A stretch of 64,000 bases of DNA from Candidatus Marinacidobacterium sp. (GCA_965204755.1 OZ242011.1:2400001-2464000), one strand, 5' to 3'. Counted from the first letter of the stretch, positions 7,754-59,153 are shown. Made by a program: numbers and translations. The notes: generated from the sequence alone by a model not told the origin.

Positions 7754-7757
<4 letters not shown>

Positions 7758-29272: not shown

Positions 29273-29785
29273 GTGAGCCGCAAGAAGACGACCCGCCGCA
29301 AACGCCGCAGCCGGGGCGCCGGGGCGCGCGGGGCCTCCGCCGCGCCGGGGCAGGTCCTCGCGGAGAACCGCCGCGCCCGGCGGCTGTTCACCGTGCTGGA
29401 GCGGTTCGAAGCGGGGATCGCGCTCACCGGCGCCGAAGTGAAGTCCTGCCGGATGGGCGGCGCCAACCTGAAGGACTCCTACGGACGGGAGCGGAACGGG
29501 GAACTGTTCCTGGTGAATTGCCACATCGCCCCCTACGCCCACGCGGCGGCGAACCGGGACGACCCGGACCGGAACCGCAAACTGCTCCTCCACGCGGCCG
29601 AGATGAAGCGCATCGCCGGGCAACTGGCGACCGCGGGGCTGACCTTGGTCCCGCTCCGCATCTATGTGCGGAACGGGTGGATCAAGGTGCAGGTGGCGCT
29701 GGCGAAGGGCCGCAGCGTGCGCGACCGTCGCGAGGCGGTTCGCGAACGCGAGGCGCAGCGGGAGGTCCGGGAAGCGCTCGGTTGA
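29273..29785 (+). CDS. smpB: SsrA-binding protein
   Basis: NRRAR, FEAGIALTGAEVKS, RKLLLH, GLTLVPL, ALAKG..DRR. Confidence 0.95.
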   Translation: MSRKKTTRRKRRSRGAGARGASAAPGQVLAENRRARRLFTVLERFEAGIALTGAEVKSCRMGGANLKDSYGRERNGELFLVNCHIAPYAHAAANRDDPDRNRKLLLHAAEMKRIAGQLATAGLTLVPLRIYVRNGWIKVQVALAKGRSVRDRREAVREREAQREVREALG

Positions 29786-29922: not shown

Positions 29923-29928
29923 TATATT
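29923..29928 (+). promoter_or_regulatory. Putative -10 box (TATATT), probably leaderless fic transcript
   Basis: 7 nt before ATG 29936; the same element lies at 31052-31057, 6 nt before the second fic. Confidence 0.5.
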
Positions 29929-29935
29929 GGTTGCG

Positions 29936-30943
29936 ATGGCCGAACCTCCGGGCCCGAAACCCTACGGCGCTCGCTGGCGCCGAGTCGCCGACCTGCCGAC
30001 TGCCGCCGAGACTTGGGGTGTATCCACTTATCGGGAGGTGGTCGAGGAATGGCGCGAAGTCCGGCGGAACTTGGAAGATCGGAAGGTCGGCCGTGAACTC
30101 ATGGACATCTGGCTCCGGGAGCGGAAGCGCGCCTTCGCCATCGAGACGGGACAGATCGAGGATCTCTACCTCCTCCGCCGCGGCGTGGCGGAACATCTCA
30201 TCGCCGAGGGTTTCGAAGGAGTGCGGGGCGCCCACAGCGTCACGGGAGAACTCGACGACGACACGCTTCGCGGGCTCCTCGAAGACCAGGAAGAGACGCT
30301 CGAGATCGTCTTCGACATGGCCAAAGGCGGAACCCCGCTGAGCCACACGACGATCAAGGGGCTTCACGCGATCCTGACGCGGCATCAGGAGACGGCGGCG
30401 GGCATTCACGGTCTCACCGGCGAACGGATCCAGATTCCGCTGAGGAAGGGCGACTACAAGATCCGGCCGAACAACCCGCGCCGCCACGACGGCTTCGTCC
30501 ATGAGTATTGCCCGCCGGAGCAAGTGGACTCCGAGATGGATGCGTTCCTCGAGTTCCACCGTTCTCACGCGAAGAGCGATCTGCCGACGGAAGTGGAGGC
30601 GGCGTGGATGCATCACGCCTTCGTCCGCATCCACCCGTTTCAGGACGGCAACGGGCGCATTTCCCGGCTCTTGGTGGCCTATGTCTTCGTGCGGAACGGC
30701 GAGTTCCCACCGGTGGTTCCGTCGGAGGGAAAGCCGATCTACATCCGCACGCTGGAAGCGGCGGACGACGGGAACCTGCAGCCGTTCATCGAGTACTTGG
30801 CTTTGCGTTCCCAAGAGAGCACTCGGGACGCCGCTCTCGTAGGCCGACAGATCCTCGAGGGACATAACCACCTGCGGCATGGCAACGGCGGGATCACGGT
30901 CAACGGGAAGTACTACCCGCCCCTGGAAGGACTTCCGGTCTGA
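29936..30943 (+). CDS. Fic family protein (paralogue 1)
   Basis: Canonical HPFQDGNGRISR. Confidence 0.92.
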   Translation: MAEPPGPKPYGARWRRVADLPTAAETWGVSTYREVVEEWREVRRNLEDRKVGRELMDIWLRERKRAFAIETGQIEDLYLLRRGVAEHLIAEGFEGVRGAHSVTGELDDDTLRGLLEDQEETLEIVFDMAKGGTPLSHTTIKGLHAILTRHQETAAGIHGLTGERIQIPLRKGDYKIRPNNPRRHDGFVHEYCPPEQVDSEMDAFLEFHRSHAKSDLPTEVEAAWMHHAFVRIHPFQDGNGRISRLLVAYVFVRNGEFPPVVPSEGKPIYIRTLEAADDGNLQPFIEYLALRSQESTRDAALVGRQILEGHNHLRHGNGGITVNGKYYPPLEGLPV

Positions 30944-31063
30944 TTCGACCGGTCCTCCCCGGCGATCGCTCGACACGGGCGCGGCCCCGGGGAGGCCGCA
31001 CGCAGCGGATCGAGTGCTGCCCGCCCGTTGGCGGGTTCGGCGACGGGCGGCTATATTGGTTCG

Positions 31064-32140
31064 ATGGCTGAACCTCCGGGCCCGAAGCCCTACGGAGCCC
31101 GCTGGCGCCCGGTCGCCGATTTGCCGGCCGATGCCGAGGGATGGGGCTCGCGTGGGTATCGAGAGGCCCTCGAGGAATGGGGTGCTGTCCGCCGCGAAAT
31201 GGAAGACCGGAAGACGAACCGATACCTCCTGGACATTCGGCGGAAGGAGCGCGCTCGGGCCCTCGCCATCGAGACCGGTCAGATCGAAGGTCTCTATCTG
31301 CTGCGCCGGGGTGTGACGGAGCGATTGGTTACGGAGGGCTTCGAGAGTGTGCGGGGCGCGAACAACGTCGCCGGAGAACTCGACGACGACACGCTTCGCG
31401 GGCTTCTCGAGGACCAGCAGGAGACCCTCGAGATCGTGTGCGGCATGGCGAAGCGCGGGGCGCCACTGAGCCATACGACGATCAAGGGGCTTCACGCGAT
31501 CTTGACGCGGCGTCAGGAGACGGCGGTGGGCATTCACGGCTTGACGGGCGAGCGCGTCGAGATCCCGCTGCGGAAGGGGGACTACAAGATCCGGCCGAAC
31601 AACCCGCGCCGCCGGGACGGCCATGTCCACGAGTACTGTTCCCCGGAGCAGGTGGACTCGGAGATGGACGCGTTCCTCGCGTTCCATCGTTCGCACGCCG
31701 ATCGGGAATTGCCGACCGAAGTCGAGGCGGCGTGGATCCACCACGAGTTCGTCCGCATCCACCCGTTCCAAGACGGCAACGGCCGGATGTCCCGACTGCT
31801 CGTGGCGTATGTCTTCGCCCGGAACGAGGAGTTAATCCCGTTGATCACCGCGACCGGTCGAGGCCACTACATCGAAATGCTCGAGATCGCTGACGACGGC
31901 GACCTCCGTCCGTTCGTCAAGTATCTGGCCGACCTCGCCATGCTGAACACCCACTATGTGGCCGTGCTGGGACAGCAGATACTCAAGGGCCGCGACCGCC
32001 TGCGCCATGGAAATGGCGGTGTGACCGCGAACGGGAAGTGCTATCCGCCCCCGGAGGAACCCTCGGTCCGACTCACGGGGCGCCCGGAGTCCAGGCCATC
32101 CCGTGCGCAAGGTTCCGGGCCGACCGGCCATACCCCATGA
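31064..32140 (+). CDS. Fic family protein (paralogue 2)
   Basis: HPFQDGNGRMSR; collinear with paralogue 1. Confidence 0.92.
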   Translation: MAEPPGPKPYGARWRPVADLPADAEGWGSRGYREALEEWGAVRREMEDRKTNRYLLDIRRKERARALAIETGQIEGLYLLRRGVTERLVTEGFESVRGANNVAGELDDDTLRGLLEDQQETLEIVCGMAKRGAPLSHTTIKGLHAILTRRQETAVGIHGLTGERVEIPLRKGDYKIRPNNPRRRDGHVHEYCSPEQVDSEMDAFLAFHRSHADRELPTEVEAAWIHHEFVRIHPFQDGNGRMSRLLVAYVFARNEELIPLITATGRGHYIEMLEIADDGDLRPFVKYLADLAMLNTHYVAVLGQQILKGRDRLRHGNGGVTANGKCYPPPEEPSVRLTGRPESRPSRAQGSGPTGHTP

Positions 32141-34739: not shown

Positions 34740-36398
34740 TCAGCCACCACCCAAGCGGTGTTCTCGTAGGCGCTCCACACCCAGTTCGTCGAGGAGGCGC
34801 CGCGTGAGCGCCTGCTCCCGGTCGTCCGCGAGCCGGTCCACCATGTCGTCGAAGAGTTCCCGCTTTCCTTCCAGGATGCGTTCCAAGCCCTCCTCGACTG
34901 TATCCCGGCAGACGAAGCGGTATTCGCGCACCGACCGAGTTTGGCCGATCCGGTGGACCCGGTCGCGCGCCTGGTTGTTCGTGGACGGGTTCCACCACTG
35001 GTTGAACAGGAATACATGGTTCGCCTCGGTGAGCGTCAAGCCTTCGCCGCCGATGCGTGTCGAGGCGAGCAGCGCGGTCGTCCGTTCGTCCGCGCGAAAC
35101 CGTTGGAGGGCGCGCTCGCGTTCGTCGGCGTCCATTTCACCGACGAACAACAAACCGGCGCTCTCGCCCCAGCGTTCCGTCATCCGCCGGCGGAGTTCGT
35201 GGAGAGGTTTCAGCCGGTGGGAAAAGACGACGGCTTTCTCTCCTTCGTCGCGGATGCCGGCGAGCCGCCCCAGGATTCGATCTCCCTTGCTGCTCTCGTT
35301 GGTGTCCGGATCGAGATCGCAGACCGTGAGGAGCCGCGTGAGCAGCGCCAGTTCTTCACCGGGCGAGCGGTGCTCCCGCAGCGCGCTCCGGTAGGCGCGT
35401 TCCTGTCCGGCGGAGAGTTCCAGGTGTTCCGTCGTCTCGCGACGAGGGGGGAGTTGATCCAGGACTTCCCGTTTCCGCCGTCGCAACATGAACTCCCGCG
35501 CCCGGCTGCGGAGCGAGGCCGGGAGTCGCGCGTCCGATGGCGAGAACCGGGTTGGCTGGACGAGTGCGAGCAGCGTCGCCAAGTCGTCCGGAGCCCGCTC
35601 CAGCGGCGTGCCGCTGATCGCCCAGAACCGCTTGGGCCGCAACCGCGCCAGGCCGCCGGTGACCTTCACGCCCTGCTTGCGCAGTCGGTGCGCTTCGTCG
35701 GCGACGATCACTTCCGGTGGGTTGCCGACCAGCGCTTCCGGCGTCGTCCGCAGGTGTTCGTAGTTGGTCAAGAGCACATGCCGCCGTCCGGCGACCGCCC
35801 GCCACGCATCCTCCCGAATGGATCGGGGCGGGTTCAGGACGGCGACGCCGAGTTCCGGCGCCCACTTTTCGAATTCGTTCTCCCAGGTCGGGATGAGGCC
35901 CTTCGGGCAGACGACGACGACCGTGCGGATCGTCCCCCCATTGAACAGCAGACGGAGAGCGGTGATGACTTGGACGGTCTTCCCCAGCCCCATGTCATCG
36001 GCGAGGATGGCGCCGGTTCGCTCGACGAGCCATTCCACCCCGTCGCGCTGAAAGGGATAGAGACTCTCCATCTCCGGGGGATCGCAGAGCACCGGCAGTA
36101 CCAACTCCCCTACTCCGAGCCGGAGTCGGCGGTATTCCGCCAACTTCGGCCGCATCGCGCGTCCGGAACGGATCGCCCGGTCGGCGGAGACGACGACGCG
36201 CACCTGTTCGCCGTTCTCGACGAGCCGGCGTTGTTGCGCGTCGAGCGAAAGAGCCCACTCGGACGCCACCCTCAACCGCTCGGCGACCGTGGAGGCGTCG
36301 TGGATCGGTGGCGCGGAGGACAGGAACCGGAAGACGACCCCGCCGGAAACCGCATCCACCGGTTGGGATCGAGGCCGGTCGGCGCTCCGCGCCGGCAT
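34740..36398 (-). CDS. Minimal SNF2/SWI2-family ATPase
   Basis: LADDMGLGKT, DEAH, SGTP, GEGLTL, WWNP..QARDRVHRIGQ. Confidence 0.92.
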   Translation of the reverse strand: MPARSADRPRSQPVDAVSGGVVFRFLSSAPPIHDASTVAERLRVASEWALSLDAQQRRLVENGEQVRVVVSADRAIRSGRAMRPKLAEYRRLRLGVGELVLPVLCDPPEMESLYPFQRDGVEWLVERTGAILADDMGLGKTVQVITALRLLFNGGTIRTVVVVCPKGLIPTWENEFEKWAPELGVAVLNPPRSIREDAWRAVAGRRHVLLTNYEHLRTTPEALVGNPPEVIVADEAHRLRKQGVKVTGGLARLRPKRFWAISGTPLERAPDDLATLLALVQPTRFSPSDARLPASLRSRAREFMLRRRKREVLDQLPPRRETTEHLELSAGQERAYRSALREHRSPGEELALLTRLLTVCDLDPDTNESSKGDRILGRLAGIRDEGEKAVVFSHRLKPLHELRRRMTERWGESAGLLFVGEMDADERERALQRFRADERTTALLASTRIGGEGLTLTEANHVFLFNQWWNPSTNNQARDRVHRIGQTRSVREYRFVCRDTVEEGLERILEGKRELFDDMVDRLADDREQALTRRLLDELGVERLREHRLGGG

Positions 36399-36407
36399 CG
36401 GTGATCC

Positions 36408-37766
36408 CTACGATCCGGCGCCGACGGCCGCGGAGCGGGCGGCAGTGACCCGCTCCCACATGCGCTTGATCTCGTCGTTCGTGGCCGGCGGATAGAGGAA
36501 ACTCGACCAGCGATCGCGGAGATCCTTCTCTTCTTGCTCGGTCAACGGATCGAGGCCCGACATCCAGCGGAACAATTCCTCGGCCCCGTCCACGGCCTTC
36601 GTGCGATCCTCGCTGCGCATTCGCAGTTTCCCGGTCTTCGGGTCCTCGACGAGGAAATAGTTCCGCCACGGCGGGCCGTGGAGGTCCCAGGGCATGGAGG
36701 CCAAGGGACGGAGCGCCTGCACCATCGCCTGGTCGTCGCCGACCGGGTCCAGGTCACACCGATCCAGGAGCGATCGCGCCACTCGCGCCAACACTTCCTG
36801 CCCCACCGGCCAGAACGCGAGGTGGTCCGCGTACTTCTCGGGCTCCGCCTTCGGAATCTCGTGGGCGCGCATCAGTTCCGGTTCGCTGCGAAGCACCGGA
36901 AGGGCCTCGATGAGCGCCGACCAGATCCGGGAGATCTGGTCGTTGTAGGCGGCGATCTCGGTGTCTTCCGGTCGGAATTGCAAGAAGACCTTCAGATCCC
37001 TCGGCCTCCCGAGTTTCTGCCGCCGCGTGACGCCCATGAGCAGGACGCGGTTCATGTAGTAGAGCGTCTGGAGACTCGTGAAGTACTGCTGGCCCGAGCG
37101 CAGGTTCTTTCCGCTCGTCAGCACGCGAAAGGACTCCTTGTGCGGCAGGGGCACGCGGAAGAACTCGTGGTCGGAGATCAGCGCACGGGTCGCGATCGCG
37201 AACACATCGTCTTCGTCCATGATGATGTTCGTGTCGGGGTCCGTCGGCTTCGCGTAGCGGTTCAGGCTGGAGAACAGCCGCCGATACCGTTGAATCCAGA
37301 GCGACTTGTCCCGTTCCTCGGACGGGTCGGGCCGAGGCACGACGATCACCGAGATCTGCTCGTTGGCGAAGTCGGGCGGGGCGCCGGCCGGATCTTCGAG
37401 GAGTTCCTGGATGGAAGTCAGCCGGTGCTGGCCGTCGAGAGCGTAGTAGCGGGGATCCTTCTGGAAGGTCAGTTCGCCGAAGGTCTCGGCGAACCGGGAC
37501 TCCACCGGCGTCCAGGTCGGGTTCCCCCCGATCGCGGCGACGACCAGCGAGGAGTAGAAGCGGTCGGGCCGGCGGGAAAGGAACTTGACGAGTTCGTTCT
37601 TGACCCGCGACTCCTTCACCGCGCGCTGGATCGCGTCGCTCAGCGTCTCGTCGGTCCACAACTCGCTCGCGAGGTCCACTTCGCGAGCGACCTCCCGCAT
37701 GGTCATGCGGGCGATGTAGTAAGTCCAGTCGCCCATCCGGGCGCGCATGGCGGGATAGACCTGCAT
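36408..37766 (-). CDS. DGQHR-domain (DndB-like) protein
   Basis: AGGAGG RBS; YPAMRARMGDWTYY, IQR, LDGQHRL, RRLFSSLNRYAKP. Confidence 0.88.
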   Translation of the reverse strand: MQVYPAMRARMGDWTYYIARMTMREVAREVDLASELWTDETLSDAIQRAVKESRVKNELVKFLSRRPDRFYSSLVVAAIGGNPTWTPVESRFAETFGELTFQKDPRYYALDGQHRLTSIQELLEDPAGAPPDFANEQISVIVVPRPDPSEERDKSLWIQRYRRLFSSLNRYAKPTDPDTNIIMDEDDVFAIATRALISDHEFFRVPLPHKESFRVLTSGKNLRSGQQYFTSLQTLYYMNRVLLMGVTRRQKLGRPRDLKVFLQFRPEDTEIAAYNDQISRIWSALIEALPVLRSEPELMRAHEIPKAEPEKYADHLAFWPVGQEVLARVARSLLDRCDLDPVGDDQAMVQALRPLASMPWDLHGPPWRNYFLVEDPKTGKLRMRSEDRTKAVDGAEELFRWMSGLDPLTEQEEKDLRDRWSSFLYPPATNDEIKRMWERVTAARSAAVGAGS

Positions 37767-37789
37767 CGGTGTGTCCTCCTGGCTGCGGC

Positions 37790-39637
37790 TCAGCAGCCGC
37801 GGTGTTCTTTCTTGATTCGATCGAGCGCTTGACGCAGCCGCCGGATGTCGCGGGCGGCCTCCTTGCGGGCCTTCCTGTTGACGGCATCGGTCAGGGGCTT
37901 TCCGCCCTCGGGGAACTCTTCCTTGAGTCCCGGGCGAATCTGCTTCTTGTACCCCCGAAGGACGGTGTTCTCCAGAGTCTCCAGCAGCGTCTCCCGCCAG
38001 CCCTCCCAGTCCGTCGTCCAAGTCTTCGGCCACGGGCCGCCGTAGGCTGCGACCAGCAACTCCAGGTAGGCGCCCAGAGCGTCCGGGACCTGCGAGAAAC
38101 GGTAGTTGACGATGGTGTCGTTGTGATCTTCCGCGATGTGCAGCAGTTCGCGTCGTCCCTGTTTGAGCCAACCCGCGTCGAACAGTCCATTCAGGCCGAT
38201 GGCGAACCGCTTCCCGTACTTCGACCAGTCGGGGTTGTCGAACCGTTCCCGGAGCGCGCCGAAGGCGGCCATGACGCCTCTCATGCCGATATCGAGGCCG
38301 ATCGGTCCGGTGAGATGTTCCTTCTTGAGTTCCTCGATTCGGCCCCGGATGGTGTGGAGTTCCTTCCCTACGGCCTCCTTGATGGGATCATCCGCTCGGT
38401 TGCTGCCGAATCGCAGTTCTTCGAAGGCATGGCTCGCCAGGTCGGACTTCGCGTCGTCGCGGTAGTCCCGCTCGAGTTCGCGGAGTCCCTTCACATAGGA
38501 GGCGAAGGGACGGAAGGTCTGCAGGATGTGCTCGATAGCCGGAAGGATCCGCTTTCGAAAACGCTCCCGCAGCCGTTCACTGTCCGCGTGATTCAGCTTC
38601 TGGACGCCCGTGTTCCGGACGCTCGTGAAGGCGCGGTGGAGTGGATCCGGGGGCACGATTCCGAGGGCCGTTCGCGCCTGCTGGGAGAACTCGTCGACTT
38701 CGCCGTCGTTCTTGAACTCGCATCCGAGGATGTAGTAGCGCAGCCAGTCGCGAAGTTCCTCGACACTCTTGACGGCGGCCGGAGCGGCAACGCGTCGCCC
38801 CAAGCGCTCCTTCCCGGTCCAGTCGTAGAACAGCAGGGGTACGCGGTCGGGGTCTCGCCCCGCCAGCGGGCGGAGGTCGTTCTGGTGCGACCGTTCCAAG
38901 ATCTCCTGCGTGCAGATCGCAGATGGACTCTCGTCGGAGAGGAGGATCTGGCGGGCGACGCTGACGACCTGCGCCGTGGTGTTGATGTACACGAAGATCT
39001 TCCGCACGACATCGACGAGCCGAGGAAGGTTCTTCGCGCTGCCTTGAGAGCGGAAGGTGACGATGACCGCCGGAATACGCCACTGGCGCAATTGCCTGTA
39101 CCCAGACCTCCACATCCTCTTGAGGGCCGACAGTCGGTGTTGGCCGTCGACCGCGACCAGCCGGGTACGGGCGTCGCTCCACTCCAGGACTCCGTACTCG
39201 AAATGGCCCTCCATCCAGCGGACTCGGTAGTGGTCACCGTGGGTCAGGCAGTGCCACGGGGCCTCGCCTTCTCCGGAGATCCGCTGTTTCCGTTTGGTCA
39301 GCCGAGGCATCGCGGCGACGATGGAGCCGGCGCCCGTGGAAACGGGAAGGAGCGTCAGGGTGAGCGGATTGAAGAAGCGGACCTTGTCTTCGGATTCCAA
39401 GTACGGAATGAGGTTGTGCGTGACTCGTTCGAGGTCCACATCCCGCTGGAAGAGGTCCCGGACCGGCCACTGTTCCGATCCCTCGATGTCACTGACGAGC
39501 GAGATGTGATCGAGTTGGGCGGGATCGAGAGCGGTCTGGAGGTAGAGGGCGCTCACGCCGGAGCCGGCGCCGAATTCGCCGTACGCGCCGGCGAGTCGTT
39601 GGTTGAAGAGATGGTCCTTGACGGGAGGGGGAGGCAT
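37790..39637 (-). CDS. Large DGQHR-domain protein (615 aa)
   Basis: LFQRDVD, FFNPLT, VDGQHRL, RKIFVYINTTA; long helical C-terminal region. Confidence 0.85.
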   Translation of the reverse strand: MPPPPVKDHLFNQRLAGAYGEFGAGSGVSALYLQTALDPAQLDHISLVSDIEGSEQWPVRDLFQRDVDLERVTHNLIPYLESEDKVRFFNPLTLTLLPVSTGAGSIVAAMPRLTKRKQRISGEGEAPWHCLTHGDHYRVRWMEGHFEYGVLEWSDARTRLVAVDGQHRLSALKRMWRSGYRQLRQWRIPAVIVTFRSQGSAKNLPRLVDVVRKIFVYINTTAQVVSVARQILLSDESPSAICTQEILERSHQNDLRPLAGRDPDRVPLLFYDWTGKERLGRRVAAPAAVKSVEELRDWLRYYILGCEFKNDGEVDEFSQQARTALGIVPPDPLHRAFTSVRNTGVQKLNHADSERLRERFRKRILPAIEHILQTFRPFASYVKGLRELERDYRDDAKSDLASHAFEELRFGSNRADDPIKEAVGKELHTIRGRIEELKKEHLTGPIGLDIGMRGVMAAFGALRERFDNPDWSKYGKRFAIGLNGLFDAGWLKQGRRELLHIAEDHNDTIVNYRFSQVPDALGAYLELLVAAYGGPWPKTWTTDWEGWRETLLETLENTVLRGYKKQIRPGLKEEFPEGGKPLTDAVNRKARKEAARDIRRLRQALDRIKKEHRGC

Positions 39638-39649
39638 GAGCGGTTGGTG

Positions 39650-40282
39650 TCAGTGGATGCTGAAGGGTGGCCGGCAGGCGTTCATGAGGATGTGCTCGAT
39701 GAGGCCGGTCAGTGCTTCGTCGTCGATGCGACCGAGGTCTTGGCGGACGGACTTCTCGGTCCGGAGACAGGCGAAGAGGAGGTCGGACACGGGAAGGGAG
39801 ATTCCGAGTTCCTCCGTGTGACGGGTGAAGCGGCGGTGGAAGTTGCCGTTGGAGTTCCTGACATGCTCCGAGTATCGGCGCTTCAGGCAGTTCGTTCGGC
39901 CCACATACAGCGGGGGCATGAGCAAACTGGCTTCGAGAAGCAGGCGCTGCAGTGCGGTTCTCGTCTTCGACACCGACACGAGGCGCTTCCAAGTCTCCTC
40001 CGCGTCGCTACTCGTGTGGACGCGTTCGGTCCGACTGACGAGGAGATCGACGGACTGCCAGGTGAACTTCGCCGGAACCCGCCGCTCCGTCGGGTCGTCG
40101 TAACTGCGCAGATCGCGAACGATCTGCATCAACTTGGGGAGATCCCGGTCGTAGATCCAGAGCGGGACGAACCAGGCGTAGCAGCCAGGTTCTTCCGGGA
40201 TCTTGTGGGAGGTCTCGCTCGTGTAGAACGCGAGGCGGCCGTCGGCGCTCCGGAGGTCGCGGAAAACGCTGAGGTCGGTCAC
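39650..40282 (-). CDS. Putative GIY-YIG nuclease with long insert between motif halves
   Basis: GTG overlaps the desulfurase stop. IPEEPGCYAW ... PLYVGRTNCLKRRYSEH ... IEHILM..RPPF. Confidence 0.65.
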   Translation of the reverse strand: MTDLSVFRDLRSADGRLAFYTSETSHKIPEEPGCYAWFVPLWIYDRDLPKLMQIVRDLRSYDDPTERRVPAKFTWQSVDLLVSRTERVHTSSDAEETWKRLVSVSKTRTALQRLLLEASLLMPPLYVGRTNCLKRRYSEHVRNSNGNFHRRFTRHTEELGISLPVSDLLFACLRTEKSVRQDLGRIDDEALTGLIEHILMNACRPPFSIH

Positions 40283-41556
40283 GACGAAGATCGGTTCGCG
40301 GCGCGCCGCCGTGCGGATTCGAGTCGCGTGGCCAGATGGACCGGCGCGGACTCCTCGGTCATCGGGCCGAGGGCGAGGCGGAGGGTGGAGTAGGCGTCGG
40401 TCGGGGTGAGGCCGAGGGCGCGGAGGACCTGGGAGGGTTCCGGGGCGCCGGAGTGGCAGGCGGAGGCGGCGGAGAGGTCGAAGGCGGGGAGGTTGGCGAT
40501 GAGGGCGTCGGCGTCCGCGCCGGGGAAGGTGATCGATGTCGTGTGCGGGAGGCGGTGGGCGAGGGCGCCGTTGATGCGGGCTTCGGGGACGCGCGCGGTG
40601 ATTTCGCGTTCGAGGCGGTCGCGGAGGGCGGCGAGGCGGGGGGCCACTTGCGGGAGGCGGGCGACGGCGTTCGTGGCGGCTTCGGCGAAGGCGGCGATGG
40701 CCGGGGTGTTGGAGGTGCCCGGGCGGAGGCCGCGTTCGTGGCCGCCGCCGAACTGGATCGGGGCGACGGGGGCCCGGCGGGGGCCGCCTCGGACGAAGAG
40801 GGCGCCGACGCCCTTGGGGCCGTAGCACTTGTGGCCGCTCAGCGAAGCGAAGTCGAGGTCGAGGGATTCGACATCGAAGGGGATCTTCCCGAGGGCCTGC
40901 GCGGCGTCGGAATGGACCGGGACGCCGTGTTCCCGCGCGAGCGCGGCCGCCTCGGCGACCGGTTGGATCGTGCCGATCTCGTTGTTCGCGGTCTGGATGC
41001 TGAGGAGGAGCGCCGGTTCGTCTTCGGGCGGGGCGAGCAGGGCTGCCAGGGAGTCGAGGTCCACGCGGCCGTCCCGGCCGACGGGGGCGGTCAGCAACTC
41101 GAAGCCGTCCGCCGCCAGGTATCGCGCCGGGGCGAGGACCGACGGGTGTTCGATGGGCAGGGTGACGATGCGGCGGCGGGCGTCGCCTCGTTCGCGCGCG
41201 GCGCGGGCGGCGCCGAGGAGCGCCAGGTTGTTGCTCTCCGTCGCGCCGCCGGTGAAGACGATCTCTTCCGGAAGCGCGCCGACCGCTTCCGCCAGTCGTT
41301 CGCGGGCGTTTTCGACGATCTCGGCGGCGCGCTTTCCGGCGCGGTGGGCGCTCGAAGGGTTCGCGTAGGTCTCCTCGGCGACTCGCTGCATCAGCGCGAG
41401 GGCCGCCGGGTCCATCGGCGTGGACGCCTGGTGGTCGAGGTAGGTGCGGGTCGGTACGGCGGTCACGGCGCGCGCCGGCGGCCCGGCCGACGGCGATACG
41501 ACCGGAGCGGCCGGCGCGGCCATCCCCGAGGGAAGGGCCGGCGCGGGGGCGCTCAC
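40279..41556 (-). CDS. sspA: Cysteine desulfurase (IscS/DndA/SspA-like)
   Basis: YLDHQASTP, FTGGATESNN, DAAQ, SGHKCYGPKG (PLP Lys), SACHS (catalytic Cys); GTGA overlaps at both ends. Confidence 0.9.
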   Translation of the reverse strand: MSAPAPALPSGMAAPAAPVVSPSAGPPARAVTAVPTRTYLDHQASTPMDPAALALMQRVAEETYANPSSAHRAGKRAAEIVENARERLAEAVGALPEEIVFTGGATESNNLALLGAARAARERGDARRRIVTLPIEHPSVLAPARYLAADGFELLTAPVGRDGRVDLDSLAALLAPPEDEPALLLSIQTANNEIGTIQPVAEAAALAREHGVPVHSDAAQALGKIPFDVESLDLDFASLSGHKCYGPKGVGALFVRGGPRRAPVAPIQFGGGHERGLRPGTSNTPAIAAFAEAATNAVARLPQVAPRLAALRDRLEREITARVPEARINGALAHRLPHTTSITFPGADADALIANLPAFDLSAASACHSGAPEPSQVLRALGLTPTDAYSTLRLALGPMTEESAPVHLATRLESARRRAANRSSS

Positions 41557-42422
41557 TTGTGACACATCAGGCACAGGTCGTCCTCGTCGTCGCCGAGCGC
41601 CTCGTAACCGAAGGCCTGGCCGAGGGTCTTCGGGCGGCGTCTCGCCGCGCGGCGCTCCCGATCCTTCGCTTCCCGGTCGAGGATCTGCTGCGTGCGGGCC
41701 GGGTCTTCGATCTGCGTGAGGCTCTCGTGACTCACCCAGGTGTATCCCTCTTCCTCCTTCTCGTAGGCCTTGGCCTTCTCGTAGAGGTCGGGGTGTTCCC
41801 GGCGCAGCCGCACCCACTCGCCGCGCTGCTGGAAGAAGCAGAAGTAGCAGCCGGAGCGGGAACGCCATTCGTAGTACTTCGGCACGCCGACGCCGCTGGT
41901 TTCCAGCAGGCGCAGGACATCGCCCTTGGCGAGTCCGTCCTCCTTGAACGGGAAGACCGCGGTGATGTTGGGTTTCGTGGAGATGTAGCCGCCGCGGTTC
42001 TCGTCGGCGCGGATGCCGACATAGAGGAGCGTGGGGTCGTCGCCGACATACTTCTCGAAGGGCTCGATCTTGAGCAGCCGGGTGCACCACCTGGCGCTGG
42101 GCGAGGGCAGGAAGCCGCCGTAGAGTTTGAGGAAGTGGTCGAAGCCGCGGTCGCCGTGTTCCGAAGCGAGGCGGACGATGGGGCGGCCGAGCCGCGCTTC
42201 GATGCGGGCCAGGTACTCGTAGGTTTCGGGGAGTTCCTTGTGGGTATCGCAGAAGAGGTACTCGTAGTCGGTTTCGGGGTGCTTCTCGCGGAGGTAGAGC
42301 GCCAGCGCGGTCGAGTCCTTGCCGCCGGAGAGCGTCACGATGTGGCGCACGGCTTCCGAACCGTCGGCGGGAGCCCCAGCGCGGCCCGAGCGCGCGGCGT
42401 CCTCTTTCGTACCGGCGCTCAT
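41553..42422 (-). CDS. sspD: PAPS-reductase-family PP-loop protein (SspD/DndC-like)
   Basis: SGGKDS, RWCT..LKI.P, GIRADE, RSGCYFC; ATGA overlap with the ATPase. Confidence 0.85.
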   Translation of the reverse strand: MSAGTKEDAARSGRAGAPADGSEAVRHIVTLSGGKDSTALALYLREKHPETDYEYLFCDTHKELPETYEYLARIEARLGRPIVRLASEHGDRGFDHFLKLYGGFLPSPSARWCTRLLKIEPFEKYVGDDPTLLYVGIRADENRGGYISTKPNITAVFPFKEDGLAKGDVLRLLETSGVGVPKYYEWRSRSGCYFCFFQQRGEWVRLRREHPDLYEKAKAYEKEEEGYTWVSHESLTQIEDPARTQQILDREAKDRERRAARRRPKTLGQAFGYEALGDDEDDLCLMCHK

Positions 42423-45400
42423 GCGTCAGGCCTCGGGCGGGGCGGTCCGACGGCAGGTTCGATGAGCCGGGTCAACAGCGTGAGCGCGGCTTGGTGTTCC
42501 TGCGGCGTGTAGCGCGCCATCGCGCCGCGCCAGTCTTCGAACAGGCGCTCGGCCGCCCCGTTGCCGTTCGCTGCGCCGTTGGCGGGGGCGCCGTTGCCGT
42601 TCGCCGCACCGTTGGCGGGGGCGCCGTTCCCCTCCGCCGCCGCGGCCCTCGACGAAACGCCCTCCGCGGCGCGGGAATCCACCAAGCGGCCCAGCCGAGC
42701 CATCTCGTGGGCCAGCAGCCGGATGCGCGCTTCCGCCCGCTCCGCCCGGTCGTCGTTCCAGCGGTCCGCCGGGAGCCCGTCGCCCAGCGGGAGCGCGAGC
42801 GTCTCCCGCCAGTCCGTCCGGTCGTCGTCGGTCCGGAGCGCCGCTTCGAGGAATTGCCTCAGGGTCAACTCGGTGGCGTGCTCCCGCAGCCGCATCGCCT
42901 CCTCGCGCAGTCGGCGCGGGAGGTCGGCGTCCGTCTCCGCCCGTTCCGCCGGCGCTCCCCCGGCCCCGGATTCCGCCGCGACCGCCCGGCCGAGTTCGCG
43001 TTCGAGCCGCCGGAGCAGCGACGGGTAGGCCGCGCCGATCTCCTCGACCGCCATCCCCAACCGGGCCGCGTACTCGGCGCCGTCCGTCCGCCCTCGCGTC
43101 GGCGAGGCCAGGCCCAGCGCCTTCGGGAGGTCGCGGAGGACCAGGTCGCGCGGATCCCGGGCGGACAGCAACTCGTCGCGGACGCGGCGGGAGTCGTCGC
43201 CGATCCGTCGCGTCTGCCGGGCGTACGCGGGCAGGCGAACGGCGCCGCCCACGAGCCGGCGCGTGACCGCGAGCAGCCGCTGGTCGTCCCGCGCGGAGTC
43301 CGGGACGCCGAAGGCGCGGCCGACAGCCCGCAACACCCGCCGCTCGGCCGGGCGGAACCGCAGTGACCGGAGCGCGAAGGTCTCCGGGCGGCGGATGAGG
43401 CGCTCCAGCGTCTCGATGCCGGTGTCCGGGACGAACAGCCCGTCCTCGTAGAGCGCGACGCGGTCGCCGAACACCCGGAGGTAGAGCGCGAGCAGCACCG
43501 GGAACGGCCCGGAGCGCAGCCCGAACGGGGGCGCTTCCAACCGGGCGATGAGGTCGGTGAGCGGCCTCGGCGCCTCGGCCGCTTGCCGGACGAACTCCGA
43601 GATCGCCTTCCACACCGGCTTCCAGGCCGGCGCGGTCGGCGAATCCAACCGGAACGACCCGTCGCGGCGCCTCCGGTGGAAGCCGCCCGCCTCGACCAGC
43701 GAGCAGTACATGCTGAACTCCGGCGGGAAACCCCGGATTCCCAACCGCTCTTCGGCGCTCCCGGCGACGATGCGCTCGATCAGGTTCCGCCGCCCGGCGG
43801 CCGCCGCCGCCGACAGCGCGCTGCGGTTCAGCAACTCGTTGCGCAGCGGCGGCGCCTCGGCGTACTCCTCGTCGCAGAGGCGGGTGAGGCGCGCCTGGAG
43901 CGCCCGCGGCCCGGTCAACTCGGTCGCCTCGTCGCCGGCGAAGAACCAGCGCCAATGTGACGGGTCGAGGACATGGCCGGAGAGGCCGAGCGCCGGGCCG
44001 GCGGCCTCCTCGAACCGCCGCCGCGCCGCGTCCTCGCGTTCGGCGGCTTCCCGGCGGGCGGCTTCGTCGCCGGCGAGTTCGGGGACCCGCTCCCGCACCT
44101 GCCGCCAGGCCTCCACTTCGTCGAGGGCCGCGCCGAGCGCCTCCGGCTTCCGCGAGACCGCCACGACCACCGGCCGGCCCGGCGGCCGCTCGCCGAAGAG
44201 ACTCGCTCGCTCGCTGTCTCCGTCCCCCGCGCCGCGGCCGCCGGCCGCCCGCGCCCGGGCCGGCGGAAGGTCCCCGAGGACGAAGAGCAGGATCCCGTCG
44301 GCGGCGGCGGGTTCGGCGAGCGCTTCGTCGAGGGCGTCCGGCGCGGTGAGGCGCGGCTCGAACCAGCGGAGCGTCCCGGTGCGGACGCTGTGCTCGCGGG
44401 CCACCGGGGGCCGGGGTTCGCTGACGCGGCGGAGCCGCTCGTGGAGCGGCGCGGGCTCCCGCTCGGCGAGCGCCTGCGCCAGCGAGTCGTCGAGGTCGAG
44501 GTCGGAGCCCTCCCAGAGCCCGTAGGCCGAACGGTGCCGCCGCCAGAGCGCGATGGACTCCCGGGTGAGACCGGCGAGCGCCGCGCGAACCGCCTTCGGC
44601 GGGCGGTCGTCCAGCGCGGTCTCCAGGGTCTCCCGGTCCGGGCGCAGCCCGACGGGGTCCCCGTAGAGCGTGAGCAGGCCGATGGCCTTGACCAGGTCGG
44701 CGGCGAGCGGCGGCGCGTCCGCCGGCACGCGGTCGAGCGCCCCGGCGATGAGGCGGAAGCGGCGCGCGTCCGGGCCGCTGAACGCGGCGGAACCCAGCGC
44801 CTCCACCGCGTAGTCGTAGAGCCGGGGCAGGCGGAAGAACGGTGGCGGGGTCCCCGGGGCGACGGTCTCCTCGTCGAGGAACCGGCGGAAGCCATAGGGC
44901 TCGTGGCTGGTCAGGAAGGCGAACAGCGAGCGCTCGTTCTGCGCCGCCTTGCTGCGGAACAGCGGCCAGAGCAGCAGGGCCGTCGTCGCGTGGAGCGGGG
45001 CGCAGGCGGCCACGCGGGCCGGCGCGGCGGGCGGGCGGCGGCTCCGGCGGTGGAGCGTCCCGGCGAGGGCGGCGGCGCGCGCCGCGTAGGGGTCCTCCGC
45101 GGCGTCCTTCTCCGGCGCCCGGCCCAGCGCGGCGGCGATCAGGTCGAGGACCTGGTCGTCGGGGAGGGCGAAGGGGAGGTCCTGGAACCGGCCTTGGACC
45201 TTCTGCCACTCGGCGCGGCGGCGGGCGGAGGCGCCGGCGCCGGGGAGGTAGTCGGAGAAGCCCGAGTGGAGCGCGCCGATGAGCAGCAGCGGCCGTTCGC
45301 TCCGCGCCGCGGCTTCCGCGAGTTGCTGGAGGAAGAAGATGTCCTCGGTGTCCTCGCCGGCGGCGAATTCGAGGTACTTGCCGAGTTCGTCGAGGACGAG

Positions 45401-45976
45401 CAGCAGCCCGCCCGGGCTTTGGGCCGCGGCTTCGGAGAGCAGCGCGGCGCACTTGGCGCCGGACGGCGCGGCGCTCCGCGCGAGGGCCAGCGCCCGGCGG
45501 CGGATCGTCGGGAGGCCGGCGGCGGCGAGCGAGCCGGCGACGGCCGGGATCAGCGGGGCGGCCTCCGCCTGGAGCAGCAGGGGGGTGAGCGGCGCGGCGC
45601 GCTTCGGGAAGAGGTCGCCGCGCAGCCGCTCCGCTTCCGGGTGCTCCGGGGCCCTCCGGGCCAGCAGGTCGGCGAGGAAGAGGAGGAACGAGGACTTGCC
45701 CGAGCCGTAGGGGCCGGTGAGCGTCCAAGCGCGGGCTCCTCCGGGAGTCGTCAGGTCTTCGAGGATTTGGCGGGCGGTCTCCCGGATGGCGCCGGTGACC
45801 ACATAGCCGCCGGGGGCGTCCCGGTTCTCCCAGTCGCGGGGGAGGTGCGCCGAGCGGTGGAAGCGGAGGGGCGGCCGCACCAGGGCCCGGAGCGGGCGCG
45901 GCGCCGGCCGGGAAGTCGTCTGCCGGGCCGGGCGCGGTTTCGCCGCGGCGGCCGGGCGGCTCAGTTTCGATACCAC
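42419..45976 (-). CDS. sspC: Large P-loop ATPase (SspC/BrxC-like)
   Basis: GPYGSGKSS Walker A, LLLVLDELGK Walker B, EWQKVQGRF, QNERSLF, PPFGLR.G. GTG start inferred. Confidence 0.78.
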   Translation of the reverse strand: MVSKLSRPAAAAKPRPARQTTSRPAPRPLRALVRPPLRFHRSAHLPRDWENRDAPGGYVVTGAIRETARQILEDLTTPGGARAWTLTGPYGSGKSSFLLFLADLLARRAPEHPEAERLRGDLFPKRAAPLTPLLLQAEAAPLIPAVAGSLAAAGLPTIRRRALALARSAAPSGAKCAALLSEAAAQSPGGLLLVLDELGKYLEFAAGEDTEDIFFLQQLAEAAARSERPLLLIGALHSGFSDYLPGAGASARRRAEWQKVQGRFQDLPFALPDDQVLDLIAAALGRAPEKDAAEDPYAARAAALAGTLHRRSRRPPAAPARVAACAPLHATTALLLWPLFRSKAAQNERSLFAFLTSHEPYGFRRFLDEETVAPGTPPPFFRLPRLYDYAVEALGSAAFSGPDARRFRLIAGALDRVPADAPPLAADLVKAIGLLTLYGDPVGLRPDRETLETALDDRPPKAVRAALAGLTRESIALWRRHRSAYGLWEGSDLDLDDSLAQALAEREPAPLHERLRRVSEPRPPVAREHSVRTGTLRWFEPRLTAPDALDEALAEPAAADGILLFVLGDLPPARARAAGGRGAGDGDSERASLFGERPPGRPVVVAVSRKPEALGAALDEVEAWRQVRERVPELAGDEAARREAAEREDAARRRFEEAAGPALGLSGHVLDPSHWRWFFAGDEATELTGPRALQARLTRLCDEEYAEAPPLRNELLNRSALSAAAAAGRRNLIERIVAGSAEERLGIRGFPPEFSMYCSLVEAGGFHRRRRDGSFRLDSPTAPAWKPVWKAISEFVRQAAEAPRPLTDLIARLEAPPFGLRSGPFPVLLALYLRVFGDRVALYEDGLFVPDTGIETLERLIRRPETFALRSLRFRPAERRVLRAVGRAFGVPDSARDDQRLLAVTRRLVGGAVRLPAYARQTRRIGDDSRRVRDELLSARDPRDLVLRDLPKALGLASPTRGRTDGAEYAARLGMAVEEIGAAYPSLLRRLERELGRAVAAESGAGGAPAERAETDADLPRRLREEAMRLREHATELTLRQFLEAALRTDDDRTDWRETLALPLGDGLPADRWNDDRAERAEARIRLLAHEMARLGRLVDSRAAEGVSSRAAAAEGNGAPANGAANGNGAPANGAANGNGAAERLFEDWRGAMARYTPQEHQAALTLLTRLIEPAVGPPRPRPDA

Positions 45977-47056
45977 CGTTCGAGGAGGGAGAGCGGGCGC
46001 GGGGCGCCGCGGCGGTGGAGTCCGCGGAGTCCGGCGGTCTCGTCGTAGCGGAGGCCGGTGTCCTTCGGGAGGCGCTCGAGAGCGGCGACCAGACTGCGGT
46101 CGTCGAGCCGGAAGGCCGCGCCGGGGCTGCCGGGGTGGAAGAGGAGCCGTTCGAGGGTCAGCGTCTGCTGTCCGGCGGCCCTCGCGTCCCAGAACTCGAG
46201 GACGGCGAAGGCGAGTACGGCGTCGGGCAGGCTGGGCCGGGGGCCGCGCGGGATCGCGTAGCGGCGGCCCGCGAGCGGGCGGATCAGGCCGAGTTCGGCC
46301 AGCGGGCAGTCGAAGGACTCTTCCACCGGCCGGCGGCGGTCGTTCTTCGGCGGCAGGTAGGTGCGCAGGAAGACATCCACATCCCGGCGGATCGAGGACA
46401 GCGAGACCGCGCGGCCCGGCGGCGCGGCGTTCCGGGCCTGGAGGAGGAGCCACTGCGCCAGCCCCTCGCGGGTGAACGAGGACTCCGGGAACCGGGTGAA
46501 CGCCAGGCGCCAGGTGGACGCCGGCGCCGTCGGCGCCGTGAGACGCCAGTGGAGCAGCCAGAGGGTCCCGGGGTCTTCCAGGAACGGGTCTGCGCCCGAA
46601 AGGGCGTCAGCGGCGCTCTCAGCGCCGTTCAGCGACTGGTGAGAGTGGAGTCCCGGTGATTTCTGGGGGGGGGGGGGGGGGGGGTAGGTTGGTTCGGAGG
46701 TCGGGGCCGGCGCCGAGGAGGAGCGTTCCGAGGTCGGTCAGGCGGGCCTCGCGGCCCCGGTCGCGCGGCGTTCGGCCGCGAGCCCCGGCGGCGAATCGGA
46801 TCAGTCCGGCGGCGGCGCACCAGTGCCGGATGGAGGCGACCATGTTCTTCCCGACGCCGAGCCGGGCGAGCGCGTCCGGGCGGGCGAAGAGGGCGGGGTC
46901 TTCGTGGATCGCGGCGGCGGCCTTGGCGAACCAGCCGTGCCGGAACGGGAAGGTCTGATGCCCGGTGAACCGGTAGGCGGGGTCGGCCGCCGCGCCGGGG
47001 ACGGGGCCGCCGGGAGCGCGGGCGGCGGTTCCGGCGAGCGACCCGGTGGGAGGCAC
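45961..47056 (-). pseudogene. sspB: DUF4007 (SspB-like) gene frameshifted in a C20 tract (phase-variable or assembly error)
   Basis: N-half: FTGHQTFPFRHGW..K, LGVGKNMVASIRHW. C-half in another frame, open from the tract to 45961: DPFLEDPGTLWLLHW, RRDVDVFLRTY, CPLAELGLI, PGAAFRL. Start inferred. Confidence 0.85.
46665..46684 (-). repeat. Homopolymer G20 (+) / C20 (coding strand)
   Basis: Counted directly; by far the longest homopolymer noticed in the window. Confidence 0.95.
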
Positions 47057-47435: not shown

Positions 47436-48371
47436 TCAGCGGCCTCGGGGCTCGCCCCGGAAGACCTGCTTCCGATGCCATGCCACGAACTCGGCGCTCG
47501 GGAGGAACTTCCCCTCCTGCGGCGGTCGGAGCGGGCGACCGCGGGCGTCCACGAGTTGGCGGAAGACCTCGCCTTGACCGCTCAGATTCCGGGACACGAG
47601 AAGGACGAAGCCGGCGCCGGCTTCGCGTTCGAGGCCGATGGCGCCCCGGTCGAGGGCGCGGTGGTGGAAGGCGCAGAGCGCGAGCCCGTTCGGGATCGTG
47701 TCGGGGCCTCCGTGGGAATGCCAGCGGATGTGGGCCGCATCGAGCCCGAAGAGATCGTCGGAGAGACGGATGTCGTAGTCGCACACCGCGCAGCGGCGCT
47801 CGTAGGCCGTGAGCACCAACTCCCGGAAGCGCGGGTCGCGCGGCCTTCGGCGCGCGGCGTCGAAGATCGTGTCTTCATGGCTCATGACCTCGTCGAGGCC
47901 GACCTCGTTCCGTATCGCTTGGTGCAGGGACTCCGGGAAATGGTCGGTGAGCAACCGGTTCGCGGCGCGCTCGACGAGTTCGCGATCGGCGAGCAACAGG
48001 CTCTGCAGCGACTCCGGGAACCCGCCCGCCACGGCGTGTTCCCGAAGATACTTCGCTCGGAGGTCGTCCCAACTGGTCTTGGCCTTTTCGGGCAGGGTCT
48101 CGAAACCCGGAATCTCCCAGAGTCCGTCCGTAAGCAGCCGTCGGAACGGATGTTCGGGATGGTGCCGTTTCCTCGGCGGGCCGAACCGTTCGAGCAGTCC
48201 GCTCAGTGGTCTCTCGATTTCGCGGCCGAAGTCGTGGAGGCGCGACGCCTCGCCCCTCGCCACGCGACCGAGCGCGAGCAGCAGAAGCAGCGGCTTGTGC
48301 GGCGCTCGTTTGCCTCCCTTCCGATGGACCCTCAGCCCGTCGAGACGGCGAAGGAACTCTTCGGGCGTCAT
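47436..48371 (-). CDS. SBD-HNH endonuclease (phosphorothioate-DNA-binding restriction enzyme, SprMcrA-like)
   Basis: N-terminal RAPHKPLLLLLALG...PEHPF..L.TDGLWE; C-terminal RDPRFR..VL.AY..RCAVC...AAHI.WH..GGPD...NGLALC..HH...DRG. Confidence 0.82.
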   Translation of the reverse strand: MTPEEFLRRLDGLRVHRKGGKRAPHKPLLLLLALGRVARGEASRLHDFGREIERPLSGLLERFGPPRKRHHPEHPFRRLLTDGLWEIPGFETLPEKAKTSWDDLRAKYLREHAVAGGFPESLQSLLLADRELVERAANRLLTDHFPESLHQAIRNEVGLDEVMSHEDTIFDAARRRPRDPRFRELVLTAYERRCAVCDYDIRLSDDLFGLDAAHIRWHSHGGPDTIPNGLALCAFHHRALDRGAIGLEREAGAGFVLLVSRNLSGQGEVFRQLVDARGRPLRPPQEGKFLPSAEFVAWHRKQVFRGEPRGR

Positions 48372-48382: not shown

Positions 48383-48835
48383 TCAGTCGTTCGTTTCAGT
48401 AAGTCGGCGGTGGTCCTCCCGCGAGCGGGAGAGGGCGCGGTTGGCCAGGTTGATCGGGTCTTCGTTGCCGGTGAGTCCGAAGCCCTTCTCCTCGAGCATC
48501 TCGCTGACGCGTTCGCATTCGGCCCAGTAGGCCTGCTCGGCGCGTTCCTTCGCTTCCGGGCCGTCGTCGGGGTTCCACGAGGGGCCCATGGCGGGCAGCG
48601 CGTCCAGGCCGGTGACCCGGCCGTCCTCGTGGATGCGGACATGACGGTCGTTCGTCATGCGGTGCATGGCGTAGTAATCCAGGAACTCCCCGTCCTCGTC
48701 CCGGTCGAAGAGGAACCAGATCGCCCAACCTTGGTCGAGGATCTGCCCGCGCTCCCGCTGCCGGACGGCGCCGGCGGGCAGGCGTATGCCCCAGTGGTCG
48801 AACATGTCGCCGAAGATGGTTTCGATGCGTTCCAT
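48383..48835 (-). CDS. Hypothetical protein (150 aa), probably co-transcribed with SBD-HNH
   Basis: GGAGG RBS; globular composition (FLDYYAMHRMTNDRHVRI); 11-nt gap to the HNH gene. Confidence 0.7.
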   Translation of the reverse strand: MERIETIFGDMFDHWGIRLPAGAVRQRERGQILDQGWAIWFLFDRDEDGEFLDYYAMHRMTNDRHVRIHEDGRVTGLDALPAMGPSWNPDDGPEAKERAEQAYWAECERVSEMLEEKGFGLTGNEDPINLANRALSRSREDHRRLTETND

Positions 48836-59151: not shown

Positions 59152-59153
59152 AC

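Follow-up and report, generated by a model that had tools for sequence, protein, structure and literature searches.

Phosphorothioate (PT) marks are written on DNA by the SspABCD proteins, and the canonical set, as described in PMC8092258, does so without extra partners of the kind considered here. The same paper reports that 2,211 of 2,678 sspBCD clusters have neither sspE nor sspFGH, and its authors expect further restriction partners to exist. SspE, which belongs to the systems of Vibrio cyclitrophicus FF75, E. coli 3234/A and Streptomyces, is a single polypeptide with an N-terminal DUF262 domain (DGQQR) and a C-terminal nuclease domain of DUF1524/HNH type; its DUF262/ParB domain is presented as what senses PT and as the counterpart of DndB (PMC12065111, PMC10853773). 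SspFGH, of Vibrio anguillarum FF-93, is a multi-gene partner in which SspH is FtsK-like and SspF has a Walker A motif; according to PMC8092258 it has no sequence homology to SspE or DndFGH and is toxic when PT is lacking. The locus analyzed here lies in a 64-kb stretch of DNA from Candidatus Marinacidobacterium sp., called the window below (G000:C1:2400001-2464000 of genome G000, a 3.98 Mb genome in a single contig; window G+C about 0.70). It is an operon of eight genes, in which a full Ssp core is followed by genes for a predicted GIY-YIG nuclease, two DGQHR proteins and a SNF2 helicase. We consider it somewhat probable that this is an Ssp-type PT system whose PT-coupled effector is split over several genes and acts as a functional analogue of SspE.

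All eight genes lie on the minus strand and run from position 47056 to position 34740. They are, with the tract that interrupts the first of them:

45961..47056, minus strand: sspB (DUF4007), GTG start, in two reading frames
46665..46684, minus strand: C20 tract in the sspB linker (G20 on the plus strand), where the frame changes
42419..45976, minus strand: sspC, BrxC-like AAA+ ATPase, GTG start, 1185 aa, PADLOC SspC 791.6 bits
41553..42422, minus strand: sspD, PAPS-reductase-like, 289 aa, PADLOC SspD 360.3 bits
40279..41556, minus strand: sspA, cysteine desulfurase, 425 aa, PADLOC SspA 408.1 bits
39650..40282, minus strand: predicted GIY-YIG nuclease ('GIY210'), GTG start, 210 aa, assigned from family matches to PF01541 and from fold
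37790..39637, minus strand: DndB-like DGQHR protein, 615 aa, assigned from motifs, profile comparison and fold
36408..37766, minus strand: DndB-family DGQHR protein, 452 aa, PF14072 and TIGR03187 above cut-off
34740..36398, minus strand: SNF2-family helicase, 552 aa, PF00176 and Helicase_C

The sspB and sspC genes overlap by 16 nt. Start/stop overlaps of 4 nt (ATGA, GTGA, GTGA) then link the genes from sspC to the nuclease gene, the last of them joining the sspA stop to the GIY-YIG start, and spacings of 12, 23 and 9 nt follow. The genes of the operon are translationally coupled. Listing of the open reading frames (ORFs) and a check of the junctions reproduced the orientation, gene order and all junction sizes given in a preliminary description of this DNA. 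Between 34000 and 49000, a scan found no promoter, and 10 terminator-like sites compared to 7.9 expected, that is, no excess over chance.

The preliminary description had taken the DUF4007, ATPase, PAPS-reductase and desulfurase genes for an Ssp core, and the PADLOC models agree: all four components are encoded together, with scores of 408 bits for SspA, 78.6 for SspB (on the N-terminal part alone), 792 for SspC (spanning residues 198-1260 of the long ORF) and 360 for SspD. Pfam adds PAPS_reduct for the sspD product (41.5 bits) and Aminotran_5 for the sspA product (199.3 bits). The PADLOC DndC model matched SspD at just 17-19 bits, and DndD had no match in the locus. By family membership, SspA, B, C and D would write single-strand PT marks. 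Candidatus Marinacidobacterium, of the Acidobacteriota, is the closest relative in the SspD tree. The sspB gene is split across two frames at the C20 tract, the sole homopolymer of at least 9 nt in the window. Its first frame stops at 46619-46621 and its second ends with the TGA at 45961-45963; the N-terminal part matches positions 1-79 of the Pfam DUF4007 profile (84.6 bits) and the C-terminal part, in the other frame, positions 74-288 (162.1 bits), so that the two jointly cover positions 1-288. The frameshift to which the preliminary description alluded in speaking of a 'repaired DUF4007' was confirmed, at the G20 run (46665-46684, plus strand). A tract of 19 or 22 C would restore the frame.

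None of the known partner modules was recognized downstream of this core. The four effector genes gave no match to the PADLOC models for SspE, DndF/G/H, PbeA/C, PglZ or BrxL, in keeping with the earlier remark that SspE and PglZ/BrxL are not recognizable here. The Pbe models did work on genes of related loci (PbeA 531 bits, PbeC 138-176 bits, on loci L019 and L003), which served as a positive control, and no Pbe match, neither to the HKD nuclease-helicase PbeA nor to the CxC ABC ATPase PbeC of PbeABCD, occurred among the scanned genes of the window. PglZ and BrxL, which accompany BrxP and BrxC in BREX type 4, were absent from the 23 window proteins scanned with PADLOC and the 36 scanned with Pfam. 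The four effector genes encode no DUF1524/HNH domain, and a PADLOC search of the whole source genome and of five other carrier genomes found no canonical SspE, only partial matches of at most 34 bits. PADLOC gave no SspF/G/H match in the four genes either; no such model was seen firing, so this contrast is one of described domain content.

The locus resembles the SspE systems in having the same PT-writing core and a partner that combines a nuclease with a ParB/DUF262-type NTPase domain with DGQxR. It differs in that the one polypeptide of SspE has as its counterpart a separate GIY-YIG protein and two DGQHR paralogues of the DndB branch, to which a SNF2 motor is added. Like SspFGH, it is a multi-gene partner of sspBCD with a motor-like protein, but its proteins are of GIY-YIG, DndB-like and SNF2 type, and they adjoin out-of-frame sspB alleles.

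The 210-aa protein is a GIY-YIG nuclease, as predicted from family matches, an AlphaFold2 (AF2) model and the fold of that model. The window protein alone is below threshold (PF01541 19.2 bits, cut-off 22.6). Its family consists of stand-alone proteins of about 210 residues, and an exhaustive HMMER search for them returned 202 representative clusters at E <= 0.001. Among 39 family members, PF01541 was matched by 28 at E <= 0.01, GIY_YIG_2 by 5 and RE_Eco29kI by 3. In the alignment of these 39 members, G33, Y35, W37, P40, P124, H140, R151, L168, E196 and P205 are invariant, while Y126, G128 and R136 are nearly so. The architecture comprises a GIY strand, an insert of about 85 residues, a YIG strand, and then the Arg, His and Glu of GIY-YIG nucleases. 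The AF2 model has a predicted local distance difference test score (pLDDT) of 94.3 and a predicted template-modelling score (pTM) of 0.88. Fold comparisons were made between AF2 models and 48,161 PDB representatives with VIA-align. For this protein they returned T4 EndoII (Z 7.6, root-mean-square deviation (rmsd) 3.5, 105 residues aligned), the GIY-YIG domain of UvrC (Z 7.6, rmsd 2.9, 85 residues aligned), I-TevI (Z 7.0), PD-T4-3 (Z 5.1) and R.Eco29kI (Z 4.9), and rows from outside the GIY-YIG superfamily began only at Z 3.1 or lower. These Z values are moderate, yet consistent with one family. A comparison of the family profile with the sequences of solved structures found UvrC rows only, at non-significant E-values (0.36-0.77). 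The features that define the superfamily (both strands, the catalytic Arg, His/Tyr and Glu, and the fold) are all found in GIY210. The assignment is made because PF01541 is matched by most members of this family and of a shorter one described below (28 of 39 and 23 of 27), because the model is of high pLDDT (94.3), and because the best fold matches reach Z 7.0-7.6.

The 452-aa protein scores above the cut-offs of both the Pfam DndB family (PF14072, 106.6 bits, cut-off 29.1) and the DGQHR family (TIGR03187, 83.5 bits, cut-off 58.85). The 615-aa protein alone is below threshold for both (18.3 and 30.9 bits). Its full-length relatives number more than 120 (45-87% identity), and the three rows with a name all read 'hypothetical protein'. 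A QR pair, a DGQHR pentapeptide and an FxxxN motif are given as the three signatures of the DGQHR/DUF262 ParB-type domain in PMC4619093. All three are invariant in the 615-aa family (Q64 R65, DGQHR at 164-168, FxxxN at 215-219; 18 sequences) and in the 452-aa family (Q47 R48, D111-R115, F165, N169). Judged from these residues, both proteins retain the motifs of a ParB/DUF262 NTPase. The two families were aligned to each other by hhalign with 97.6% probability over 214 columns (19% identity), and the ESM Atlas neighbours of a 615-aa homologue, P0082, are DndB-family clusters. In its AF2 model (pLDDT 79.9), the 615-aa protein has a ParB/Srx-like N-terminal domain and a helical C-terminal domain. 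Residues ~19-226 match PadC (Z 6.5), KorB (Z 5.6), the ParB-N domain of pNOB8 (Z 5.4) and sulfiredoxin (Z 5.0); the match to the SspE crystal structure 6jiv reached Z 4.1 over 124 residues. Among the sequences of solved structures, neither the 615-aa profile nor the 452-aa protein had a match at E up to 1. The viral_contigs search yielded no relative of the 452-aa family, and the plasmid search yielded no close relative of the 615-aa protein, with 7 distant DndB-type matches.

Since the 452-aa protein is a member of the Pfam DndB family, and both proteins have the motifs of the DndB of DndABCDE systems, it may be asked whether the DGQHR proteins, perhaps together with the nuclease and helicase, are accessories or regulators of PT writing, controlling how dense the marks are or where they are placed much as DndB controls dnd transcription. 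Negative regulation of PT is ascribed to DndB (PMC10853773, PMC6435447), and SspB itself binds and nicks DNA, so an extra nuclease and motor could aid writing. Compared to DndB, both proteins are longer (452 and 615 aa), no dndCDE neighbourhood is present, and the 615-aa protein does not match the DndB equivalog TIGR03233 at all. Against such a role, the 452-aa protein falls far under the cut-off of that equivalog (58.7 compared to 328 bits), and the DGQHR proteins always occur with a catalytically complete nuclease and mostly with a helicase, a combination typical of effectors, whereas canonical SspABCD writes PT without them (PMC8092258). We regard an accessory or regulatory role as unlikely.

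The last gene encodes a SNF2 helicase (PF00176 150.2 bits, Helicase_C 68.6 bits) in which no nuclease domain was detected. Its PADLOC matches (E-values 1e-35 to 1e-68) are restricted to the helicase cores of ZorD, DpdE and DrmD, of the Zorya, Dpd and DISARM systems, respectively. Those proteins have further domains that the 552-aa protein lacks, and PADLOC found no second component of Dpd, DISARM or Zorya among the ten proteins scanned. As far as motifs can tell, nuclease and helicase both retain what catalysis requires.

The neighbourhood was analyzed in two independent scans. In the first, homologues of the 615-aa protein were sought in one genome per species, 78 loci were retained, and the window proteins were mapped on them by tblastn. 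Among the 37 loci with a full-length homologue, sspD was present in 29, sspC and sspB in 28 each, and sspA in 22; GIY210 was present in 20, the 452-aa type in 18 and SNF2 in 16. Six of the 8 loci without sspD had less than 2 kb of upstream flank. The gene order of the window recurs exactly in L001, L003, L004, L005, L007, L008, L009 and L016. Elsewhere, parts are exchanged for equivalent ones. In L012, L023, L024 and L028, a 150-aa canonical GIY-YIG gene (giy150) stands between both DGQHR genes. Where SNF2 is absent, a ResIII/DEAD helicase of ~540 aa comes after the 615-aa type, replacing the 452-aa and SNF2 genes in L017, L018, L020, L022, L033, L035-L037 and L040. In the Actinomycetota (L041, L042, L044, L048, L049), sspABCD is followed by distant DGQHR proteins and then by a ResIII/DEAD helicase.

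The second scan started from the 452-aa protein and covered metagenomes, with 80 loci retained. The giy150 gene lay immediately upstream of the 452-aa gene in 72 of the 80, and SNF2 was present in 39 of the 42 loci having room for it. The 615-aa type was found in just 2 of the 80 loci. The small proteins encoded by giy150 match PF01541 in 23 of 27 cases, and retain the G, Y, Y, G, R, H, E and N residues. As for linkage to ssp, these genes were present in all 10 loci with at least 4 kb on both flanks, and in 19 of the 20 whose flanks sum to at least 9 kb; the one locus without them has 513 nt on one side.

We conclude that the recurrent partner of sspBCD is a triad made of a GIY-YIG nuclease, a DndB-like ParB-fold protein and a superfamily 2 (SF2) helicase, and that it exists in two paralogous versions: GIY210, DGQHR-615 and a ResIII/DEAD helicase in the first, giy150, DGQHR-452 and SNF2 in the second. 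The window is a hybrid: its nuclease and 615-aa protein belong to the first version, its 452-aa protein and SNF2 helicase to the second. Its four effector genes are not chance neighbours. The preliminary description had proposed a distinct four-gene module coupled to PT. The coupling stands, as homologues do co-occur with PT cores and the linkage spans Acidobacteriota, Pseudomonadota, Planctomycetota, Bacteroidota, Actinomycetota and others; the unit of four is refined to a hybrid of the two triads. Relatives of the 452-aa protein were found in just 5 of the 401 genomes sampled from the phylum, and effector content varies between close SspD relatives, for example L005 and L006. Such a rare, patchy and modular distribution is typical of defence genes. 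Two carriers are cultured, Stieleria tagensis TO1_6 (L023) and Marinobacter sp. ELB17 (L032).

The same data bear on whether the nuclease, DGQHR and helicase genes could instead be a stand-alone defence system, independent of PT, that is just a neighbour of ssp in a defence island. Many defence genes lie in the window, the effector genes differ in G+C from the ssp core, and close SspD relatives differ in effector content (L005 compared to L006, while L019 has PbeA/PbeC); a stand-alone nature has moreover been argued for DndFGH by Rakesh et al. (PMC10853773). However, linkage to ssp is near-complete given enough flank (10/10 and 19/20 in the second scan; 29/37 in the first) and extends across several phyla, and in the window the sspA stop overlaps the GIY-YIG start through GTGA. 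An independent system thus appears quite unlikely.

Three arrangements in related loci are recorded here as observations in their own right. A small DUF1232 protein is encoded between sspD and the effectors in some loci (L022:8918-9355, L033:8874-9302, L023:9564-10001, L024:9489-9956, L028:9201-9965). In L025:3932-8887 and L021:5298-9769, the 615-aa type lies beside a HATPase_c_3 protein, a DUF6339 protein and a weak PAPS-reductase-like ORF, or else beside a helicase, in place of a plain sspBCD; this arrangement may be another sulfur- or PAPS-reductase-based modification variant. Pbe-like genes adjoin sspBCD and the 615-aa DGQHR gene in L019:11905-16532, L003:6656-9283 and L013, and Ssp cores may pair with Pbe-type modules in some relatives.

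Returning to a split effector coupled to PT, the four genes probably form the anti-phage arm of the PT system. From their domains and company we infer PT sensing, nuclease licensing, translocation and an anti-phage role. The multi-gene effector would stand in for SspE or SspFGH: the two DndB-like proteins would read PT status as the DUF262 domain of SspE does, and would then license the separate GIY-YIG nuclease for nicking or cutting DNA, while the SNF2 ATPase would move the complex along DNA between marks.

The sspB tract has a history of its own among the relatives of the locus. Runs of 13-32 C are present at the same sspB linker site in 12 related loci, in addition to the C20 of the window; the linker is flanked by '...LG.LLFG' and 'DPYLEDPGTLWLLHW'. 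Placed on the SspD tree, the loci with a tract correspond to all 13 Acidobacteriota rows in a clade of 16 rows, and they span two classes. Of the 12 related loci, 7 are out of frame and 5 in frame, L007 and L008 being unsure due to masked letters beside the tract. Among the 29 tract-less loci, none is out of frame. CCC makes up 80 of the 257 proline codons of the operon, and since it is a minority among them, a pure C run is unexpected from polyproline coding alone. In sequencing run X13, in which the stretch is best represented, the long contigs break at the tract, which is spanned by short unitigs of 42, 41, 40, 39 and 38 nt with depths of 55, 45, 35, 21 and 10, compared to 231 in the flanks. 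They imply tract lengths of 18-22, which either real heterogeneity or sequencing stutter could give. Runs X1, X14 and X5 gave no clear tract length.

Long tracts are not confined to sspB. Over the whole genome, the lengths of G/C runs are bimodal: 45 runs have 8 nt and 5 have 9 nt, no run has 10-13 nt, and 37 have 14-34 nt. Among 20 ORFs at or beside these tracts are two DNA methyltransferases, arylsulfotransferases, GDSL lipases, a PMT_2 glycosyltransferase, a TonB-dependent receptor and giant proteins. Functions of these kinds are usual among contingency genes, and the whole looks like a genome-wide contingency set in a sponge- or marine-associated lineage of Acidobacteriota. Three related Acidobacteriota genomes also have many long G runs, a gammaproteobacterial carrier has fewer, and Stieleria has none. 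In a test of the phase of the G+C content at third codon positions (GC3), 6 of the 37 genome tracts were shifted and none was in frame; the other 31 lay at gene edges or gave no clear signal. Just left of the window, an ORF for an N6_N4 DNA methylase (136.6 bits; G000:C1:2397822-2398931) has a G26 tract near its 5' end, and a weak DUF262-type match lies at G000:C1 2397510-2397764.

A long homopolymer in a coding region, varying in length and frame among relatives, is what characterizes a contingency locus, and this is found at sspB. The C tract is accordingly a candidate phase switch of PT writing, whose slippage would turn writing on and off. The situation is reminiscent of phase-variable methyltransferases of restriction-modification systems, where a homopolymer in a defence modification gene produces on and off frames among relatives; it differs in that the gene is one of phosphorothioation and the tracts are unusually long (13-32 nt). 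Streptomyces pglX also carries a G-tract. Phase variation of the PT epigenome was raised for dnd in a 2018 review, which states that no simple sequence repeats had been observed in dnd genes (PMC6435447).

Another explanation would be that the locus is decaying, the frameshift being a dead-end mutation or a homopolymer error of the assembly, and the tract having no function. The sspB gene is indeed out of frame in the assembly, homopolymers of 20 nt or more are error-prone in sequencing, and out-of-frame states make up about two thirds of the tract loci (7/12, plus the window), as random lengths would give. But both sspB halves score strongly, no other lesion is present and the seven downstream genes are intact; the tract is at the same linker site in all 12 relatives of the clade, in two classes. 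Moreover, the small share of CCC among the proline codons (80/257), the lack of frameshifts in tract-less loci (0/29), and the lack of genomic G/C runs of 10-13 nt next to 37 of 14-34 nt all speak against decay. Decay or artefact therefore seems very unlikely.

The out-of-frame sspB alleles, standing beside intact effector genes, also favour one mode of action of the split effector over another. If the tract does switch sspB, it would need PT and be harmless when PT is missing, according to a logic like that of SspE, rather than attack unmarked DNA in the manner of SspFGH. Several points weigh against the split effector as a whole. The argument from tolerance of PT loss depends on the lengths of the tracts, which sequencing may report wrongly. 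For the 615-aa protein, fold matches are weak (Z <= 6.5), and its helical C-terminal half has only generic ones. A search for longer relatives of GIY210 and of the 452-aa family found no fusion of nuclease to DGQHR protein, or of DGQHR protein to helicase, although this is weak evidence. SNF2 is on the opposite strand in 14 of its 48 occurrences in the metagenome loci, and L006, L011 and L038 have GIY210 and the 615-aa type but no helicase found by the tblastn queries. The G+C of the effector genes (0.63-0.67) is below that of the ssp core (0.74-0.78), which fits module shuffling. In Dpd systems, the ParB-like protein DpdB is part of the modification machinery. Finally, DndB in Dnd systems is described as a transcriptional regulator (PMC10853773).

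The gene directly upstream of the operon adds a further element:

47436..48371, minus strand: SBD-HNH PT-dependent restriction endonuclease, NF045808

It matches NF045808 (PT-DNA_restrict) with 301.9 bits (cut-off 180), as well as Pfam HNH_2. Homologues flank 8 of the 12 tract-bearing loci, as tandem pairs in L001 and L009. An enzyme that cuts PT-DNA beside an operon that writes PT is a puzzling pairing. One scheme, which we put forward tentatively and think has a small chance of being right, is that the PT epigenome is phase-variable, tract slippage leaving the split effector to act in PT-on cells and SBD-HNH in PT-off cells. Slippage in sspB would divide the population into these two kinds of cell. 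The split effector of PT-on cells would rely on the PT marks of the host in attacking invaders that carry none. In PT-off cells, nothing would keep the SBD-HNH enzyme from cutting phage DNA that was PT-marked in sister cells.

Other genes of the window, apart from the operon and its upstream neighbour, are the following:

3420-10894, 18785-21712, 25476-26303, 29927-32140 and 59136-60392, strand not stated: other defence genes, namely a type III methyltransferase and restriction enzyme, HEC-07, UzuA (Uzume), two SoFic-like Fic proteins and PDC-S01
29273-29785: SmpB

No tRNA or tmRNA was found by a search of the window. A further ORF, orf150 (48383-48835), had no family match and no homologue in the related loci.

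URI/GIY-YIG nucleases are listed among dnd neighbours in PMC10853773. In the literature, we found no description of a DndB-like/GIY-YIG/helicase partner of sspBCD; the supplementary tables of PMC8092258, PMC10853773, PMC12839542 and PMC12914056 could already list the module. The triad is thus apparently undescribed so far. Its presence beside sspBCD in several phyla would fill part of the gap left by clusters without a recognized partner, and would provide a natural 'split SspE' for studying sensing, cutting and translocation one by one. With a conserved homopolymer switch in sspB, phase variation of the PT epigenome would become directly testable. If the phase-variable scheme is true, this would be the first simple-sequence switch in a system of DNA-backbone modification, together with a new family of Ssp effectors across many phyla.

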